Source: an uncultured cyanobacterium (GTDB lineage Bacteria > Cyanobacteriota > Cyanobacteriia > PCC-9006 > JAAUQQ01). Taken from it: a stretch of DNA of 64,000 bases. The number at the start of each line of letters is the position of its first letter. The stretch's first letter is position 1. A program made the translations under genes and the position numbers. Shown in pieces: positions 15,235-22,759 of this stretch. The notes under the pieces are model-generated. The model saw only the letters and a list, made by a program, of their open reading frames with translations, was not told the DNA's origin and did no database searches. The stretch lies in assembly GCA_963718615.1 (NCBI GenBank), contig OY970368.1, positions 928,001-992,000 of the forward strand, given 5' to 3'.

Positions 15235-15340
15235 AAGTCGCCACCACTAACGATAGGATAAAACACAGACCGCTGCTGAAAACCGCGCCGTCGGCAACTT
15301 GTTCTAATCCTTAAGTTTGGCTGCCCAGGTACCCACTGTG

Positions 15341-16453
15341 ATGAAATCGATTATCCCCGTCCCATTGCCCCAACAGTCCTACAACATCGCCATTGTGCCC
15401 GGCGGCTTGGCGCAGCTAGGGGATTGGATGGTGGTCCAGGATGGGGGGTTGAATCTGGGCAAAAAGGTGTTGCTGGTGTCCAATCCGGAGATTTTTGCAG
15501 TTTATGGCGATCGCGCCTGCCAATCTCTCCAAGCCGCAGGCTTTGACGTGGCGACTCACCTGATCCCAGCGGGGGAAGAACACAAACACCTGGGCTCGAT
15601 CCAAGCGCTCTACGACAGCGCCTTAAACCACAAGCTGGAGCGCTCTTCCACGCTGGTGGCCCTGGGCGGTGGCGTAATTGGCGATATGACGGGGTTCGCG
15701 GCGGCAACCTGGCTGCGGGGGATTAACTTTGTCCAGGTGCCGACGTCGCTATTGGCCATGGTCGATGCTTCAATTGGCGGCAAAACGGGGGTGAATCATC
15801 CCCAGGGGAAAAACCTGATTGGGGCGTTTTATCAACCGAAGCTGGTTCTCATTGACCCGACGGTCTTGGCAACGCTACCGGAGCGGGAGTTTCGAGCGGG
15901 AATGGCGGAAGTGATCAAATACGGGGTGATTTGGTCGGCGGAGCTGTTTGAAGCCTTGGAGCGCAATGAGCGATTGATGCAGCTAGAAGACCTGAGCCCG
16001 GAGTTGCAAACGGCGATTCTGGACCATTCCTGTCGGGCCAAGGCAGAGGTGGTGGGGAAGGACGAAAAGGAATCGGGGTTGCGGGCGATTTTGAATTACG
16101 GCCACACCATCGGCCACGCGGTGGAGAGTCTGACGGGCTACACCGTGGTCAATCATGGGGAAGCGGTGGGGATTGGTATGGTGGCGGCGGGTCATTTGGG
16201 TGTGGCGTTGGGGCTGTGGGATGAAGCCTCGAATGGGCGGCAGTTGGCGCTGATTGAAAAGGCGGGGTTGCCGACGCAATTACCGGCGGGGATTGATCTG
16301 GAAGCGATTATTGATGCTTTGCAAAGTGATAAGAAGGTAAAGGCTGGAAAAGTGCGGTTTATTTTGCCCCAGGCGATCCGTTCTGTGGTGATCACCGATG
16401 AGGTTTCGCGGGAGGTGTTGCGGGAGGTGTTGGCGGGGATGGAAAAATTTTAA
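15341..16453 (+). CDS. aroB: 3-dehydroquinate synthase
   Basis: [41 protein letters not shown]; in-frame ATG at 15341. Confidence 0.97.
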
Positions 16454-16473
16454 AATTAAAAAATAAAAAAAAA

Positions 16474-16486
16474 CGCGCTGCGCGCG
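16474..16486 (-). other. GC hairpin with 3-nt loop (CGCGC-GCA-GCGCG), DGR-type cis hairpin and/or terminator
   Basis: Lies about 55 nt downstream of the VR-like stop, after a pyrimidine-rich tract, and is followed by a T-run. Confidence 0.6.
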
Positions 16487-16540
16487 CAAGAGGAGAAAAG
16501 ACCCAAGGGCAGAGGGCAAAAGGTTAAGAAGTGTAAAGTG

Positions 16541-16669
16541 CTAGTGAGTCCTCGCGCTAACACACACCACCCGAAACCCGCAGTAGTAGTTGCGATTGTC
16601 GGGCGAAGCGTTGTTGCGGGAGGCCGAGCGGCAGTCCCTCGGAGATCTGAGCCACGAACCGCCCCGCAG
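16541..16669 (-). pseudogene. Orphan C-terminus of an FGE-sulfatase (CLec-fold) gene, resembling a DGR variable region
   Basis: Minus strand translates LRGGSWLRSPRDCRSASRNNASPDNRNYYCGFRVVCVSARTH*; an in-frame TAA lies about 20 codons upstream, so the gene body is missing. Confidence 0.85.
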
Positions 16670-17105
16670 GCAAACTTTTGTCGAGTGGGTCACCCATGCT
16701 CGGTCTCGTTCGGTCTGGTCACAGGCATTTTATCAACAGCAACGACTGTCGGGTAAATCCCATCAAAAGGCCATTCGTGCTTTGGCTTATAAATGGGGGC
16801 GGATTCTTTGGCGATGTTGGCAGGATAGGACTCCTTATGATGAGGAAAAGTATCTCGCTGCTCTCCGGCGCAAAAACTCTCCTTTGGTCGCTCTTTTACC
16901 GGATTAGTTCTCTATCTTGTTGCTCGATTGAACTGCTTTAGGTTTTGAACCAATCGAATACAAAAAATACGAAGATGGCTCTGATAGACCAGTTTGGCTG
17001 ATACTCAAAACTGACTATTAGGTGGTTTGCGCTGGCTTCAATTCGCTCGGATATTACATCAGAGTTATTTTGTATCTTCTCTATTGACCCTGTCCGCCTC
17101 AGGGC
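16665..17105 (+). mobile_element. IS110-family remnant: transposase C-terminus (16665-16907) plus putative right end
   Basis: RQTFVEW...WSQAFYQQQR..GKSHQKAIRALAYKWGRILWRCWQDRTPYDEEKYLAAL matches IS110 transposase C-termini. Right-end position is inferred from TTGAC...CCTCAGGGC abutting an attC half-site. Confidence 0.75.
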
Positions 17106-17109
17106 CTAT

Positions 17110-17119
17110 GTTATGCTGC
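17110..17119 (-). other. Candidate attC R'' half-site (GCAGCATAAC on the cassette strand)
   Basis: Perfect 10-bp inverted match to 20277-20286; no clean attC hairpin follows, consistent with interruption by the IS. Confidence 0.5.
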
Positions 17120-17356
17120 AATCTGGGCATAATGTGTTCCCCAAAATTTATCGGTTGGGCAGTAGAAGTTGTGGTTGGGAATGCATCCTACAAGCTCGGA
17201 GATTGCATTTCATCCCTAAAGCTGACTTCATAGAATCTTGAGCAAACTTGGGTAGCACGCCAGCCTGATTTTTTAATCAAATCGCTGATGACTCTATAGC
17301 CGTTTACATGAGGTAGATAGTTAATTTGGAACAGTTGAGCTAAAGAATACTTTCAG

Positions 17357-19981
17357 TTATTCAATTTTAGCAATCACTCGAAACTCATGCCTTGTTGAAG
17401 TGCCTTCAACAATCTCAGCGAAATAAGTTTTTCCACCAATGCGATCCCCTCTTTCTTCAAATTGAACTGTCCCTGTTGCTCCATCAAATTTAATGGTGGT
17501 CATGTTTCGTTGGATGGACTCTCGCGTGAATCCTCCTTGTAAGCTATCTTGTAAGCTATCTTGTAAGCTATCTTGTAAGCTATTGACCAGTGCCAAGACA
17601 GCATCATACGCCATTGGCGTGCGCCAAGTGCCTACAGCAGCACCCCAAAGTTTTTCAGCATCGTTCGCGAATTCTTGAGCCGCTTCAGAAATACTTGGAT
17701 CCCAAGGCGTTAAAACGACTGTTCCCAAAATATTTGTGTTTTCCGCCGCCAGGATTTCACCCAGATACATGGAGGGGCTGGCGACGACATCCTGCAAAGC
17801 TTTTTCCCCTTTTGCATAGTCTAATGCTTTAATAACCTCACTTGTATCCTCCGTCGATGGCACAATAAGGAGTCCGGTTGCTCCATCTTCTGTAAGTGTT
17901 TTCAGAAGCATCTCGTTTAAATCTGCCTGAGTAGCTTCAACACCAGCTTGAGCAACAGGACTGAGAATACTCTGAAAGTCGCAACTTCCTTTTAAGAGTT
18001 CAAAGTTATCATCGCTGGATTCTTTCTGCTTATCAATGATATCGCTTGTGAAGGAGTCACTAAAGAGTGAACCAGAATTGAAGCAAACAGAGACGTTCCC
18101 ACTCAAATTCTCTTTTGCGTACTGAATAAATGCCTCGGCTATCTCTTTATCATTTGGGACTGTTCGAAAAAAGTATTTACTCTTAACAGCTAAATCTGTC
18201 TCGCTGCTGGTGGGAGAGATAATAGTCAAGCCGAAGTCATCATAATCCTTGAGAGCGGCTTCAGTTGTACTGCTCGAATTGTGACCAACGACTGCCAGTA
18301 TGTCAGGGTCAGATCCGAAACTATTAGCCACCTGCGCCGCAACGGCACTTTCATTACCATCATCAGCAATCTCGACCTGTAGCAGGAAACCATTGTTTTG
18401 CATCCCTTCATTGCACGTAACTGTTGATTGCTTATTTCTGATTTCTTCTAAGATATCTGTAATTTCTCCGCAATTCTCCTTTGATTGTGCATGAGCAACC
18501 CCTCGAAGTATTTCTTCTGCCCGATCTTTTGATACGCCACTAATAGGGACGCTTACCCCTATCTTGACTACTTGTACATTTTCACCCTCTTTACGTTGTC
18601 TTTCAGCTTCTGCGTTGTTTAGATAGATAAGAGCTTCTGGATCATTTGGATAGCCCGTAAGCCACGCTTCCAGCACTTGCACAGCGTCTTCATATCTACC
18701 CTCTTGAAAATGGGCTTCAGCTAATTCTCTCAGAGCGTTCAGAGGACTGTCACTGTCACTCGCAATCAAAAACTCTTCGCCAAGACTCTTTCTAGACTCT
18801 GGAAGAGGATTACCGGCTTCAAAGATAGCTTCAAACAGCCTAGCCCCGACAGAGAAAACGAGACTGAATCCTATCAAGGCAACAAAGATATAGCCAACCA
18901 GCGAGGCAATAGGCTTGCGATCTTCGGATGCTGACTCAGGCGTTGATGGAGATGGTTCGGCAGCATCCCTTGGTGGAGGGGCATACGTTCGCGTCCTGCC
19001 TTCGGTTACACTTTCTTCTTCAGAGGAAGCTTCTTCTGTCGAGTCTTTTCTTGTAGGAACTTCTTTTGATAGAGAAGCTCCTCTTCGAAGGAGTGTTGGA
19101 TATTGATGCCCCTTCATACCTTCCATATGAACCGCGTTTCGACCATACTCACATGAATCCTCAATTGGGGTTCCTGCACCGAGTGCATCATAAAAGCCAA
19201 TTGCAAATTCAATCGCTGCCTCATCGCCAATAGCCTTACTCATACCGATGACGTAGTTGATATGCCGACTGATGGCTTCAGCCTGAAACTCGGAGTAACA
19301 AGCATTGAGGACAACGCATTCAACTGTTTCCGAACAGAGTTTAAAGAGATTGGCGAGAGCTTCGCTATCAAGTAAGTGATAAGCCCCTAATCTGTTTTCT
19401 ACCACTAATCCATCTTCGCCAGCACCGTGCCCTGCAAAATGTATCAAGTTTGGTTTACAGTCCAAAATTTTCCGTCTTATATCTTTGGTACGGACTGCGC
19501 CAGCTATTTCTATAGAAAAGTTTGAGGAGTAACGAGATCTTTGAATCGCTTCTTGTATTTCTCGCACTTCCTCATTAAGGGACAACCGCTCCGTATTTTT
19601 AGGATTAGCCGATAATATTAATATTTTCCATGTTTTAGTTGGAGCCTTTACGATAGTAGGACTTGATGTTCCGTGACCGATTTCATACTTACTGATTAAT
19701 GTATCAAGCCATTGCTGGTTCTCAACGCCTGTAAATTGTCTTACGGCTTTTATAAATTTTCCTAAGGCATAAGTTCCATCATCCAGACGACCATAACTCG
19801 ATAATTGCTTAACAATTTGACTAGTTACAACAAACGTATCACCGGATAAATCAATCGTAGCGACAAACTGGCTCAACCCAGCAAAGTCAAGTATTGCCTG
19901 ACGACCAGGTTTCGTAGCTAGCTGTGGCAGATCCTTAAGGAGAATGACGAGGTGCTGGAAATCTTCAGTGCTAAGCTGCAT
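17357..19981 (-). CDS. EAD-like + CHAT (caspase-like) + TM + TPR-like + LivJ-type periplasmic binding domain protein
   Basis: ILILSANP, HFAGHG and VVLNACYS (CHAT His/Cys dyad); TM IASLVGYIFVALIGFSLVFSV; PNDPEALIYLNNA; LAVVGHNSS, SPTSS, FFRTVP, FDGATGTVQF...GDR. Confidence 0.9.
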   Translation of the reverse strand: MQLSTEDFQHLVILLKDLPQLATKPGRQAILDFAGLSQFVATIDLSGDTFVVTSQIVKQLSSYGRLDDGTYALGKFIKAVRQFTGVENQQWLDTLISKYEIGHGTSSPTIVKAPTKTWKILILSANPKNTERLSLNEEVREIQEAIQRSRYSSNFSIEIAGAVRTKDIRRKILDCKPNLIHFAGHGAGEDGLVVENRLGAYHLLDSEALANLFKLCSETVECVVLNACYSEFQAEAISRHINYVIGMSKAIGDEAAIEFAIGFYDALGAGTPIEDSCEYGRNAVHMEGMKGHQYPTLLRRGASLSKEVPTRKDSTEEASSEEESVTEGRTRTYAPPPRDAAEPSPSTPESASEDRKPIASLVGYIFVALIGFSLVFSVGARLFEAIFEAGNPLPESRKSLGEEFLIASDSDSPLNALRELAEAHFQEGRYEDAVQVLEAWLTGYPNDPEALIYLNNAEAERQRKEGENVQVVKIGVSVPISGVSKDRAEEILRGVAHAQSKENCGEITDILEEIRNKQSTVTCNEGMQNNGFLLQVEIADDGNESAVAAQVANSFGSDPDILAVVGHNSSSTTEAALKDYDDFGLTIISPTSSETDLAVKSKYFFRTVPNDKEIAEAFIQYAKENLSGNVSVCFNSGSLFSDSFTSDIIDKQKESSDDNFELLKGSCDFQSILSPVAQAGVEATQADLNEMLLKTLTEDGATGLLIVPSTEDTSEVIKALDYAKGEKALQDVVASPSMYLGEILAAENTNILGTVVLTPWDPSISEAAQEFANDAEKLWGAAVGTWRTPMAYDAVLALVNSLQDSLQDSLQDSLQGGFTRESIQRNMTTIKFDGATGTVQFEERGDRIGGKTYFAEIVEGTSTRHEFRVIAKIE

Positions 19982-20279
19982 GTCTAGCGATCTTCCTCAA
20001 AGGACAACGAGGGAACGTACCCGGATTTCAGGATCTCTAACGCTTGGAACTACTTACAAAATTCGGCTCATGTTAATGGAAATGTTGACAGGAAAGTGTT
20101 TTGATAAACACCTAGACGCAATTTTAAGAGAATTCTGATCTTTTTTCACAATTTCGCCAAGTTTATTAGCGTGAATTCCCAATTGTTCCAATACTGTGAC
20201 TTCTGTCACTAAACTGCATGACGAAATGCTGCGTGACAAGCAGATGAACTTCAAGTACCTTCACAACAGAGGACTAGCA

Positions 20280-20395
20280 GCATAACGATTTAGCTCAGCC
20301 GCGCCAAGAAATCTAGCTATTATCAACGCATGTTGATAGCGCGGCTGGCTCATCAATCCTTTTTTTGTGGCGTCGGTTGCAGCGATGTGTTAATT
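20280..20395 (-). other. Integron attC site (116 bp)
   Basis: Minus strand: AATTAAC-ACATC-GCTGCAACCGACGCCA ... TGGCGCGGCTGAGC-TAAATC-GTTATGC, with 5/6-bp spacers and two extra bases on the R''/L'' arm as in canonical attC. Confidence 0.85.
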
Positions 20396-20479
20396 CGTAG
20401 CGGAGTTGTTTACAGTGTTCCCAAGCGCTAACATTAAATCTATAGGCAAGCCTCCTCAGTGATTCATATTTCCGCTGCG

Positions 20480-20500
20480 ATTTAACTCTTAATAGGCAGA
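20480..20500 (-). other. Candidate attI core (TGCCTATTAAGA-GTTAAAT)
   Basis: GTTRRRY core 150 bp upstream of intI, facing the array. GTTAAATCGCAGCGG matches the cassette end at 20389-20403 as an inverted repeat (13/15). Confidence 0.65.
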
Positions 20501-20631
20501 AATTTTCTGTATATCATCCTCATAGAGCATGATAGCCAGAAACTTTCTACATATCCCCTAGACGATATCCCGAAACTTTCCGTATAACCCGCATATAGGG
20601 GTGATAGGCAGAAATATTCTTCATATCGCCC
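20492..20631. repeat. Four imperfect palindromic direct repeats, consensus ATAGGCAGAAAnTTTCTnnATATC
   Basis: Copies start at 20492, 20532, 20565 and 20604, between attI and the intI start. Confidence 0.8.
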
Positions 20632-20634
20632 ACC

Positions 20635-21606
20635 ATGGAAAACCGGCCTAAGAAGCTCCTAGAACAGGTTAGTGAGCAAATTCGCCTTAAACACTACTCT
20701 TATCGTACCGAGGAAACCTATATTCAGTGGATAAAACGTTACATTCTGTTTCACAATAAGCGTCATCCTAAGGATATGGGAGTCCCAGAAATTGAAGCAT
20801 TCCTAGGCCATCTGGCTGTCGAGGGAAAAGTCGCAGCCTCAACCCAAAATCAAGCGCTCAGCGCAATACTTTTCCTCTATCAACACGTCCTCAAACAAGA
20901 CCTAGACGGGCAAGTTGATGCAATCCGAGCCAAACGCCCTCACTACTTGCCGACTGTTCTTACCCCAGAAGAAGTTCGGGCCATCCTAACCCAGATGTCT
21001 GGCGTTCACCGACTCATTGTTCAAATCCTCTACGGGAGTGGTCTTAGGCAGACTGAATGTCTGAAATTACGCGTGAAAGACCTCGATTTCCAACAATCTC
21101 AAATTATTGTCAGGATGGGCAAAGGTGGCAAAGACCGCGTCACACCACTTCCTCAAAAGCTCACTGAGCCCCTACAGGAACACCTCCAAGCCATTCGCCG
21201 CCTCCACCAGCAAGATCTAGACCGTGGCTATGGACAAGTTCCACTCCCTTTTGCTATGGCCAAAAAACATCCTCATGCAGGACGGGACTGGCTCTGGCAG
21301 TTTGTCTTTCCGGCCATCAATATCAAAAAAGACGATAGTGCTCCCTTCCCTTACCGCCATCCACTCCACGAAACAGGTATCCAAAAAGCGCTCAAAGCAG
21401 CAACCTGTCTTGCAGGAATACAAAAGCGTGTGAGTTGCCACACCTTCCGCCACAGCTTCGCCCCCCATCTCCTACAAAACGGCTACGACATCCGCACCGT
21501 CCAAGAACTGTTGGGCCACAAAGATGTCAAGACAACCATGATCTACACCCATGTCCTCAATCGCGGAGGCCGAGGCGTTCGCAGTCCACTGGATATCACC
21601 TCGTAA
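20635..21606 (+). CDS. intI: Integron integrase (tyrosine recombinase)
   Basis: [42 protein letters not shown], integron-specific insert ([19 protein letters not shown]), HTFRHSF, LLGH, IYTHV. Confidence 0.96.
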
Positions 21607-22759
21607 TCTGGTCCACCACCCACCGAGCCGAAGCCGGAGCCAACAAAACACCATTGCGATAATGGCCCGTCGCCAGCAAAACATTGTCATAGCCCTGGAG
21701 CGTTTCCAAAATCGGAGCCGGACGGCCCTGGGGGCGGGGACGCAGACCCGACCAAGCGCGGACGATTTCCCCCTGGGCGAGGTCCGGGCAGAGCGCGATC
21801 GCCCCCCGCCACACCTGATCCAGCAAAGATTTATCCGCGATCGCCGCCATCCCCCCATCATCCGGCAATTCCACCGTCGCTCCCACCCAATATTCCGCCG
21901 CCTTAGGCGAAAGTTCCGTCTCCGTCATCCAGGGCTTCAGGAGCGGCACGATATGAATATCCTGGCCCGTAACCACCGGTTGCAGATGATCACCGCCCAA
22001 GGGCCGAGGCAACCACACCTGCAAGGCTTGGCCTAACACCGGACGAACCTCCAAAGGCGTTTGCAAACAACGGGTCAACGCCATCGAGCCCAACCCAGCG
22101 GTGATCACGACAATATCTGCCGGTTCAGAATCCTCCGCCCAGCAGACCTGGGTACAGTGGAGCAACGGGGAATCGAGGGCATCGGACGGGTTGGGGGTCA
22201 GGGTCGTGAGAAAAGCATCCACGGCGGCATCAAACCGGAAGCGTACGCCTCGCCGTTGGGCCGCTGTGACGAGGGCTTGGGTGAGCGCGGTGGGATCGAC
22301 CTGGCGATCGCCCTCAGAATACACCCCACCGATCAAATCTGGTCGCTGAGCATTGACTTGGGGATAGCGCTCCTGGAGGCGATCGCGGTCGAGGAGTTCC
22401 AGGGCAAAGCCCTGGTCTTGGCGGCTGGTTTGGAGCGATCGCCACCGCTCCCAGTCATCCCCCTCAAACAGCAATTTCAAAATGCCCTGGCGATTAAACG
22501 GCACATGCTGACCCGTCGCCGCTTCGAGCTCTGGAATCAGTTGCTCATAGCGCGCCAGACTCTCCCGCCGCAGTTGCCACTGGCGTCCTTTGACCTTATG
22601 GCTGATCACGCCCATGAGTACCCCCAAAGCCGCCGCCGTGCAGGCTTGGGCCGGGGGCTGGCGATCGAGCACCGTAATCTTTAATCCTGGAATATGGCTG
22701 AGTTCATAGGCCGTCATTGCCCCTACAACCCCGCAGCCGATAAGAGTCACCCGAGTCAC
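21596..22759 (-). CDS. FAD-dependent oxidoreductase (DAO/ThiO-like)
   Basis: IGCGVVG Rossmann motif, [22 protein letters not shown]. Confidence 0.9.

Follow-up and report, generated by a model that had tools for sequence, protein, structure and literature searches.

Sedentary chromosomal integrons, which include decayed examples whose intI has been inactivated (e.g. in Xanthomonas), consist of an integrase gene of the TIGR02249 type that diverges from a multi-repeat attI, and of cassettes with G|TT borders that form an island of low GC content. The locus described here shares these traits; of the other integrons in its genome, only fragments of intI and dispersed attC sites are left. It is located in a window of 64,000 nt, which represents positions 928001-992000 of the complete 6.1-Mb genome of an uncultured cyanobacterium, assembled as one contig (OY970368.1). 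In this locus the integron is combined with an insertion sequence (IS) that appears to resemble the IS1111-attC group and with a relic of a diversity-generating retroelement (DGR), each being of a known kind. We consider it probable that the adjacency of the integron and the variable region (VR) of the DGR-type gene is an accidental deletion scar, which arose after IS insertion and deletion and involves no functional coupling.

The elements of the IS1111-attC group, ISPa21 being one of them, possess a DEDD transposase, subterminal inverted repeats and about 200 nt of non-coding sequence downstream of the transposase gene (tnp), and insert site- and orientation-specifically at one end of attC. 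The IS of the window and its relatives share the type of transposase and the mode of insertion; subterminal repeats and about 200 nt of non-coding sequence downstream of tnp are seen in them as well, but the full copy has a longer non-coding region upstream of tnp. ISKpn4 and ISPst6 are named as members of this group in Siddiquee et al. (2024; PMC11187229). The cyanobacterial DGR variable proteins described by Vallota-Eastman et al. (2020; PMC7517822) have in common with the proteins of the present genome a C-terminal CLec/FGE domain with the VR at the 3' end of its gene, a conserved 3' cis element, kinase or orthocaspase N-termini in paralogues and a dispersed arrangement of these paralogues. 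That work also includes cyanobacterial genomes that lack the reverse transcriptase (RT) and keep remnant homology between template repeat (TR) and VR, all3226 being an example.

The FGE remnant and its junction with the insertion sequence

The elements that meet at the junction, and the attC remainder next to them, are the following:

16454-16540, minus strand: 3' flank of the FGE remnant with a terminator-like GC hairpin (16487-16473)
16541-16670, minus strand: remnant of an FGE-sulfatase/CLec gene, representing the VR; last 42 codons (LRGGSW...GFRVVCVSARTH) and stop codon
16668-16670, no strand: deletion junction with AGG microhomology, at which the FGE gene is fused to an internal part of the IS transposase gene
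16668-17109, plus strand: 3' 442 nt of an IS110-family (IS1111-like) element, 95-96% identical to four other copies
17110-17116, minus strand: attC half-site (R'' box) of the CHAT cassette, GTTATGC, i.e. GCATAAC on the cassette strand

The 42 codons of the FGE remnant form the end of a 50-codon open reading frame (ORF) on the minus strand and match the Pfam FGE-sulfatase profile at positions 214-254 of 255 (E = 1e-5). They have a GC content of 0.638 and end in GAGGAC, which resembles an initiation of mutagenic homing (IMH) sequence. It shares homology with both the VRs and the TRs of DGR loci found in relatives. When it was aligned with the TR of a relative and inspected by eye at the protein level, differences were seen only where the TR has Asn, Tyr or Ile. 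In the nucleotide alignments with TRs, adenines of the TR are mismatched at a rate of 0.43-0.57 and all other positions at 0.22-0.28.

Ten FGE C-termini are encoded in the genome, including the one in the window. Five of them, the group A paralogues, differ from each other almost only at NNC codons, and their conserved flanks reach about 45 nt beyond the stop codon. Such a pattern, with variable NNC codons enclosed by conserved flanks, is typical of sequences that were rewritten at adenines from one shared template. The 3' flank of the window remnant aligns with the post-stop flanks of most other FGE genes in the genome, the gene at 5612933 being the exception, and also with the VR flanks of relatives bearing the GCGCGAAGCGC hairpin; the hairpin at 16487-16473 has counterparts at a similar place in the paralogues and in these VR flanks. 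The segment 16454-16540 is the conserved cis element downstream of DGR-type VRs, which in this case is also a putative intrinsic terminator. The nine other FGE genes have GC contents of 0.54-0.60, comprise 212-691 codons and are all distant from intI, attC and IS features, the closest of which is 37 kb to 990 kb away. Caspase domains are present in two of the DGR-type FGE genes of the genome and a kinase domain in one. The destroyed neighbour of the integron was a multidomain FGE/CLec gene of the DGR-target type. This agrees with the preliminary description of this stretch, which had proposed that a DGR target was destroyed here, and is borne out by the homology of the CLec/FGE VR to TR/VR pairs located beside the RTs of relatives.

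The junction itself was delimited from both sides. In an alignment with four IS copies, homology to the IS sets in at 16668, within the transposase frame and at a distance of about 526 nt to the element's left end. Homology to two aligned FGE paralogues stops at 16669/70, with AGG being common to both sides. The location inside the transposase gene together with the 3-nt microhomology identifies the junction as a deletion scar. Contigs of run X2, which contains a close relative, provide a comparison: one of them covers 16054-16553 with 11 differences in 500 nt (98%), an intI contig exhibits 7 differences in 764 nt (99%), and the junction between intI and the following oxidoreductase gene is also bridged by an X2 contig. 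Three X2 contigs diverge from the window at 16669, and their hand-translated consensus extends the FGE frame, with ...SERSRV preceding LRGGSW. As FGE coding continues past 16669 in X2, the junction would be specific to the strain analysed here. A 151-nt contig of run X3 spans 16542-16692 with a single difference; it has just 25 nt on the IS side and was not counted as bridging.

Recombination of one IS copy with another, or the transfer of a composite segment, could also have assembled these pieces, in which case both the FGE remnant and the IS fragment would be displaced. The genome offers material for such events, since it contains at least 8 IS copies or fragments and at least 5 integron or integron remnant loci, and several of the IS fragments are 5'-truncated and anchored at the right end. 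However, the junction connects unique FGE sequence to the interior of the IS rather than one IS to another, the sequence from the remnant flank to aroB is continuous and host-like, and X2 shares both the sequence from aroB to the FGE stop codon (98%) and the junction of intI with the oxidoreductase gene. We regard this explanation as unlikely.

Assuming a deletion scar, the following history is proposed. An attC-homing IS1111-like copy would have inserted at the attC of the CHAT cassette, immediately adjacent to the R'' box. A later illegitimate deletion, making use of the 3-nt microhomology, would have removed the 5' half of the IS, the remaining part of the attC and any further cassettes, and the same deletion would have taken nearly all of the neighbouring FGE/CLec gene, which is presumably native at this position. 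The VR, the IMH-like end and the downstream hairpin would thereby have been left behind, convergent with aroB.

Insertion of IS1111-like elements into attC sites

The IS fragment in the window comprises the last 79 transposase codons (to 16907), about 200 nt of the non-coding right end and a subterminal inverted repeat. Its similarity to four other copies spans 16668-17116/9. Only the last 60 positions of the profile NF033542 are matched (27.8 bits, 1.4e-6), which is below the cut-off of 140. A full-length relative of 1814 nt is present at 1918.1-1919.9 kb of the genome and encodes a transposase of 391 aa with the domains DEDD_Tnp_IS110 (PF01548, 8e-20) and Transposase_20 (PF02371, 1.4e-17). 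Most copies are internally deleted derivatives of about 971 nt, to which the single full copy is 75-81% identical. Short elements are found at 3852.9-3854.0, 3845.7-3846.8, 2245.1-2247.0 and 4716.7-4717.6 kb, each of them occupying an attC at one and the same position. The presence of a lone, more divergent full copy beside the short elements suggests that the latter were mobilised in trans. The distance of the subterminal repeat GGACGGGG..GAGAAGA from the ends of the elements is 6 nt on the left and 14 nt on the right. Non-coding sequence amounts to about 200 nt downstream of tnp and, in the full copy, to about 420 nt upstream of it. Neither the complete window nor the full-length IS gave a match to an Rfam family, and none of the described models of bridge RNA or seekRNA was matched.

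To locate attC sites, an iterated nhmmer profile built from the genome's own attC family was used, which detected 20 attC sites of one family across the genome. It replaced a simple scanner searching for AAC...GTT pairs combined with folding, which had returned nothing in 16400-20700 and had also missed known attC sites. Sites of this family are also scattered singly far from integrases, e.g. at 415570, 427137, 744907, 3133728, 4100519 and 5014238, and in this respect resemble attC clusters or singletons without integrase.

Five of the 20 attC sites are interrupted by the IS at an identical position, just inside one R box. In all eight right ends examined, the IS finishes with ...GGCCTAT, and the next seven nucleotides form a GTTRRRY-like heptamer that begins with GTT; the heptamer corresponds exactly to the consensus in five of these and reads GTTATGC in three, including the copy in the window. 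The left flanks contain an attC-like palindrome in 5/5 cases examined, which starts with GCCTAAC-like boxes, the attC ending in TT. In each of the four arrays (4/4) the IS occupies the attI side and shares its strand with intI, while the cassette genes are encoded on the other strand, and the window copy conforms to this arrangement. Thus, the IS inserts site- and orientation-specifically at one end of attC. A second occupied attC was noticed near the full IS copy, at 1920968.

Accordingly, the element called an attC half-site in the preliminary description is real: it represents the R'' box from the attC site of the CHAT cassette, with the IS abutting. This box at 17110-17116 is the sole remainder of that attC, and the IS is placed directly against it. 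Judged by its features and its insertion site, the IS of the window can be classified as IS1111-attC-like. It differs from the known group in its cyanobacterial host, in the prevalence of internally deleted derivatives of about 971 nt and in the longer non-coding region (about 420 nt) upstream of tnp in the full copy.

Decay of the DGR and its relation to the integron

The genome was searched for an RT in three ways. The PF00078 profile yielded 0 candidates (controls were positive in 3/14), a regular expression for RT motifs found no RT in the genome, and tblastn searches of the genome with the DGR-type RTs of four relatives gave a best E of 0.46. Separately, tblastn indicated a weak similarity (E = 0.95) at 6034435-6034512, directly after an FGE gene, which extends over 26 residues and involves the C-terminus of the DGR-type RT of a relative; it could be the last trace of a lost RT or noise. 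By comparison, RTs were detected in six of seven genomes of the same family, and at four DGR-type RT loci of relatives the TR/VR pairs are homologous to the FGE segments and to the remnant in the window.

At 5133912-5133990 the genome contains an AAC-rich, stand-alone segment (KRGGSWNNNPKNCRSAQRNYNQPDN), located between the second and the third of three tandem FGE genes and 4.2 Mb away from the window remnant. As it has no FGE coding sequence upstream and no RT beside it, this segment represents a TR truncated at its 3' end. A strong hairpin follows the relic in the region 5133912-5134060. Alignment of the window VR with the relic revealed 34 mismatches in 97 aligned positions, 13 of which are at adenines of the TR, the rate at non-A positions being 0.28; a cognate TR for the window VR was not found in the genome. 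Taken together, the DGR is dead in this genome, which has no RT and in which the only template repeat is a truncated relic. In comparison with the cyanobacterial DGR proteins introduced above, the present case is distinguished by a bare VR that survives fused to an IS fragment, and by nine intact FGE genes, a subset of which share the VR flanks, next to a 3'-truncated TR and no RT. In run X2, three to four mutually differing contigs cover the VR (16576-16669) with a summed depth of 3-5x that of the aroB-side contig. This depth would fit several near-identical VR or TR copies, possibly from an active DGR in that relative.

The preliminary description had gone further and proposed that two diversification machines are coupled at this locus, the FGE/VR gene being a member of the cassette array or having been recruited to its end, such that shuffling and hypermutation act on one set of receptors. 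Two observations speak for this idea. The VR is on the cassette strand and directly past the last cassette, and the cargo of that cassette is a caspase-like CHAT signalling protein, which recalls the caspase (two) and kinase (one) domains of the DGR-type FGE genes. However, no attC-like match to the genome's attC profile was found between the FGE stop codon and aroB, the GC content of the remnant (0.64) differs from that of the cassettes (0.41-0.46), and its 3' flank is as in FGE genes that are at least 37 kb away from any integron feature. The lack of attC, the host-like GC content and the FGE-type 3' flank indicate that the FGE gene would be native and not a cassette. Moreover, the junction lies within the IS and not at a recombination site, and the genome has no RT.

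The coupling idea was also examined in other cyanobacteria by surveying 20 kb on each side of 20 intI genes located on long contigs. An FGE domain was encountered on the attI (cassette) side in 0/20 cases and on the other side in 2/20 cases. The enrichment of FGE genes around integrons that coupling would entail was thus not observed. In the same 20 neighbourhoods, a relative of the IS110 family occurred once on an attI side and a CHAT relative once on the opposite side, without a pattern. The titles and abstract openings of 15 of the 19 papers naming both terms revealed no link between integrons and DGRs, and the mentions of integrons in PMC4891356 are unrelated. In view of these data we consider functional coupling highly improbable. 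What holds of the proposal is that the destroyed DGR target abuts the present end of the array; membership inside the array is not supported, in view of the missing attC and the host-like composition. Chance adjacency after a deletion, which the preliminary description had retained as a caveat, is the best explanation.

An RT gene was observed on the cassette side of another cyanobacterial integron (L183, 17351-18181, of genome G199), 0.6-1.5 kb from intI. Its product is only 25% identical to DGR-type RTs, and it could belong to an attC-targeting group II intron.

Several points weigh against the reading as an accidental deletion that removed a native FGE gene. The genome assembly is a single contig, and an RT on an unassembled plasmid would escape the searches described above. 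The preliminary description had suggested inspecting the interval between aroB and intI in close relatives for the FGE gene. In X2, FGE coding does continue upstream of the VR, but the aroB-side contig ends at 16553 and is unlinked to the VR contigs, for which a close paralogue is a possible source. The closest metagenomic relative of aroB is 71% identical (80 loci kept), so that the ancestral interval between aroB and the oxidoreductase gene could not be read directly. An FGE gene is found downstream of aroB in 0/7 more distant relatives, leaving the native position unsupported by synteny. These seven family-level relatives also have no intI, DAO, CHAT or IS downstream of aroB, which is uninformative at that distance; STK-aroB synteny is present in four of the seven stretches. 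Finally, in the four active DGRs of relatives the homology of TR and VR begins just before the Arg codon (CGN) of RGGSW, corresponding to window position 16666. The end of the deletion at 16668-16670 is therefore only 1-4 nt upstream of the edge of VR/TR homology, which a random deletion would not predict. This position may be due to chance.

The coincidence at the VR edge would also be accounted for if the deletion resulted from aberrant DGR homing, i.e. if DNA broken at the 5' edge of the VR, or a cDNA junction left incomplete there, had been repaired by microhomology to the IS in the adjoining integron. The endpoint falls 1-4 nt upstream of the start of homology as defined in four active DGRs, and the surviving sequences are exactly the cis-acting homing target, namely the VR, the IMH-like end and the hairpin. 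For FGE genes of 212-691 codons, a uniformly distributed endpoint would fall into this 4-nt window in about 0.2-0.6% of cases. However, the coincidence was spotted after the fact. In addition, the bases upstream of the edge (CTG, Leu) are derived from the gene and not from the TR, which does not fit a simple run-off of the cDNA, and no RT remains in the genome. When VR-only remnants were sought in eight genomes of the family, the short frames detected were explained by TRs, by a full gene with a frameshift and by ends of contigs, apart from a single remnant (G001:C197). This other truncated FGE gene breaks about 35 codons upstream of the VR. We assign a low probability to a homing accident. 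If it had occurred, the retroelement would have killed its own target and truncated the array in one step, and this would constitute a physical interaction of DGR and integron rather than functional coupling. An accidental deletion, as laid out above, is the explanation we prefer.

The integron platform, its cassettes and flanking genes

From left to right, the order in 15317-22759 is aroB (+), the 50-codon ORF (-), the IS110-family fragment (+), the 874-codon gene (-), 650 nt without a long ORF, the 323-codon integrase gene (+) and a convergent gene for an FAD oxidoreductase (-). The preliminary description had listed eight elements, from intI to the VR with its hairpin, and all of them exist in the order and on the strands given there. 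The set of elements, together with the alignment of the remnant to VR and TR of relatives' DGR loci, is far above chance expectation. The features of the integron and its surroundings are:

15317-16453, plus strand: aroB, 3-dehydroquinate synthase (Pfam DHQ_synthase 6.3e-50, DHQS_C 3.1e-46)
17110-20285, minus strand: cassette 2, about 3.2 kb, from the G|TT of R' (20286/20285) to the R'' box (17116-17110)
19981-17357, minus strand: CHAT gene encoding a protein of 874 aa (Pfam EAD8, CHAT, TPR, Peripla_BP_6/ANF_receptor)
20254-20054, minus strand: 66-codon ORF in cassette 2, no family assigned
20286-20485, minus strand: cassette 1, 200 nt, no ORF, three copies in the genome, attC-like hairpin
20486-20634, no strand: predicted attI, four 29-nt repeats, crossover G|TT at 20486/20485
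20635-21606, plus strand: intI, integron integrase of 323 aa (TIGR02249)
21596-22759, minus strand: FAD-dependent oxidoreductase of the DAO family (Pfam DAO 1.1e-59)

The integrase matches the TIGR02249 'integron integrase' model at positions 1-313 of 315 with 444.2 bits (cut-off 265), and the HxxR and GH...Y motifs are legible in its translation. The genome contains no other full-length intI, and the intI sequences at four further loci are all partial. The putative attI next to intI contains four repeats of 29 nt, which span 20490-20630 and each possess a GCCTAT(C/T)A-like core. Its crossover point is defined by two independent homology blocks that join at a single GTTA: the platform block 20483-20768, comprising attI and the start of intI, is 91% identical to a second platform at 1.907 Mb, and the cassette block 20283-20486 is 97% and 90% identical to two other sites in the genome. 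Hence, the predicted attI adjoining intI would recombine at G|TT. The GC content is 0.41-0.50 from about 16700 to 21300 and 0.55-0.62 on both sides, as compared to 0.523 for the genome; for the island and its flanks as such, values of 0.40-0.50 and 0.57-0.64 were obtained. The locus thus is a real, ordinary chromosomal integron of low GC content between two native genes. Integron integrases above the cut-off were detected in 127 of 401 cyanobacterial genomes sampled; being common in cyanobacteria, they indicate that the integron itself is not new.

Cassette 1 is present three times in the genome, with 90-97% identity between the copies and unrelated flanking sequences. Two of the three copies have GTT at both ends, while the third (4.666 Mb) has GAT distally. 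A repeated unit bounded by GTT within unrelated surroundings fits the appearance of an integrated cassette. Its putative attC forms a perfect 9-bp stem (20296-20304 pairing with 20339-20347) and has GTTATGC as R' box, and the bottom strand folds with -18.7 kcal/mol (z = -2.9), a stability reached by 0/200 shuffled sequences. The R'' box is degenerate and lacks RYYYAAC, and the site matches the genome's own attC profile weakly (E = 0.11).

Cassette 2 has a GC content of 0.40-0.44, the value for the cassettes being 0.41-0.46 in the comparison with the remnant. The 874-aa protein has an EAD8 domain at its N-terminus, followed by a caspase-like CHAT domain, a segment judged by eye from the translation to be hydrophobic, TPRs and finally a type-1 periplasmic-binding/ANF-receptor domain. 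It is also matched by the PADLOC 'chat' model (2.6e-12). The cassette 2 product is predicted to be a transmembrane EAD8-CHAT receptor, with TPRs and periplasmic-binding domain facing outward. The CHAT gene is not covered by contigs of runs X1-X4 except for a short stretch near 19176-19436, from which no inference was drawn. A HigA-like antitoxin had been considered for the 66-codon ORF and was dropped, as Pfam, NCBIfam and PADLOC provided no support (the best match, E = 0.061, is irrelevant). As compared to sedentary chromosomal integrons in general, the locus differs in that only two cassettes are left, one with a degenerate R'' box and the other being unusually large (3.2 kb) and coding for the predicted transmembrane EAD8-CHAT receptor, and in that its array has been cut by an IS and a deletion.

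On one side, the integron and the FGE remnant are flanked by aroB, a native gene convergent with the remnant, for which an orthologue was found in 31 of 31 genomes searched. On the other side, the gene for the DAO-family oxidoreductase is the native flank of the integron. Its 3' end overlaps that of the convergent intI by 11 nt (21596-21606), and similarity to the other intI fragments of the genome ends at 21594. In genome G001, whose intI exhibits 72% identity, the 1.5 kb on either side of that gene contain no DAO gene.

Adjacency by itself provides no ground for inferring that diversification machines are coupled. What the locus illustrates is that three known processes can be encountered in one 5-kb stretch: capture of cassettes, parasitism of attC by an IS, and decay of a DGR, which leaves frozen VRs behind. 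That the deletion ended at the VR edge offers a small clue to errors of DGR homing. In turn, the attC-homing IS family, with its derivatives of about 1 kb and its numerous insertions at a fixed position, may be natural material for studying RNA-guided (seekRNA) target choice.

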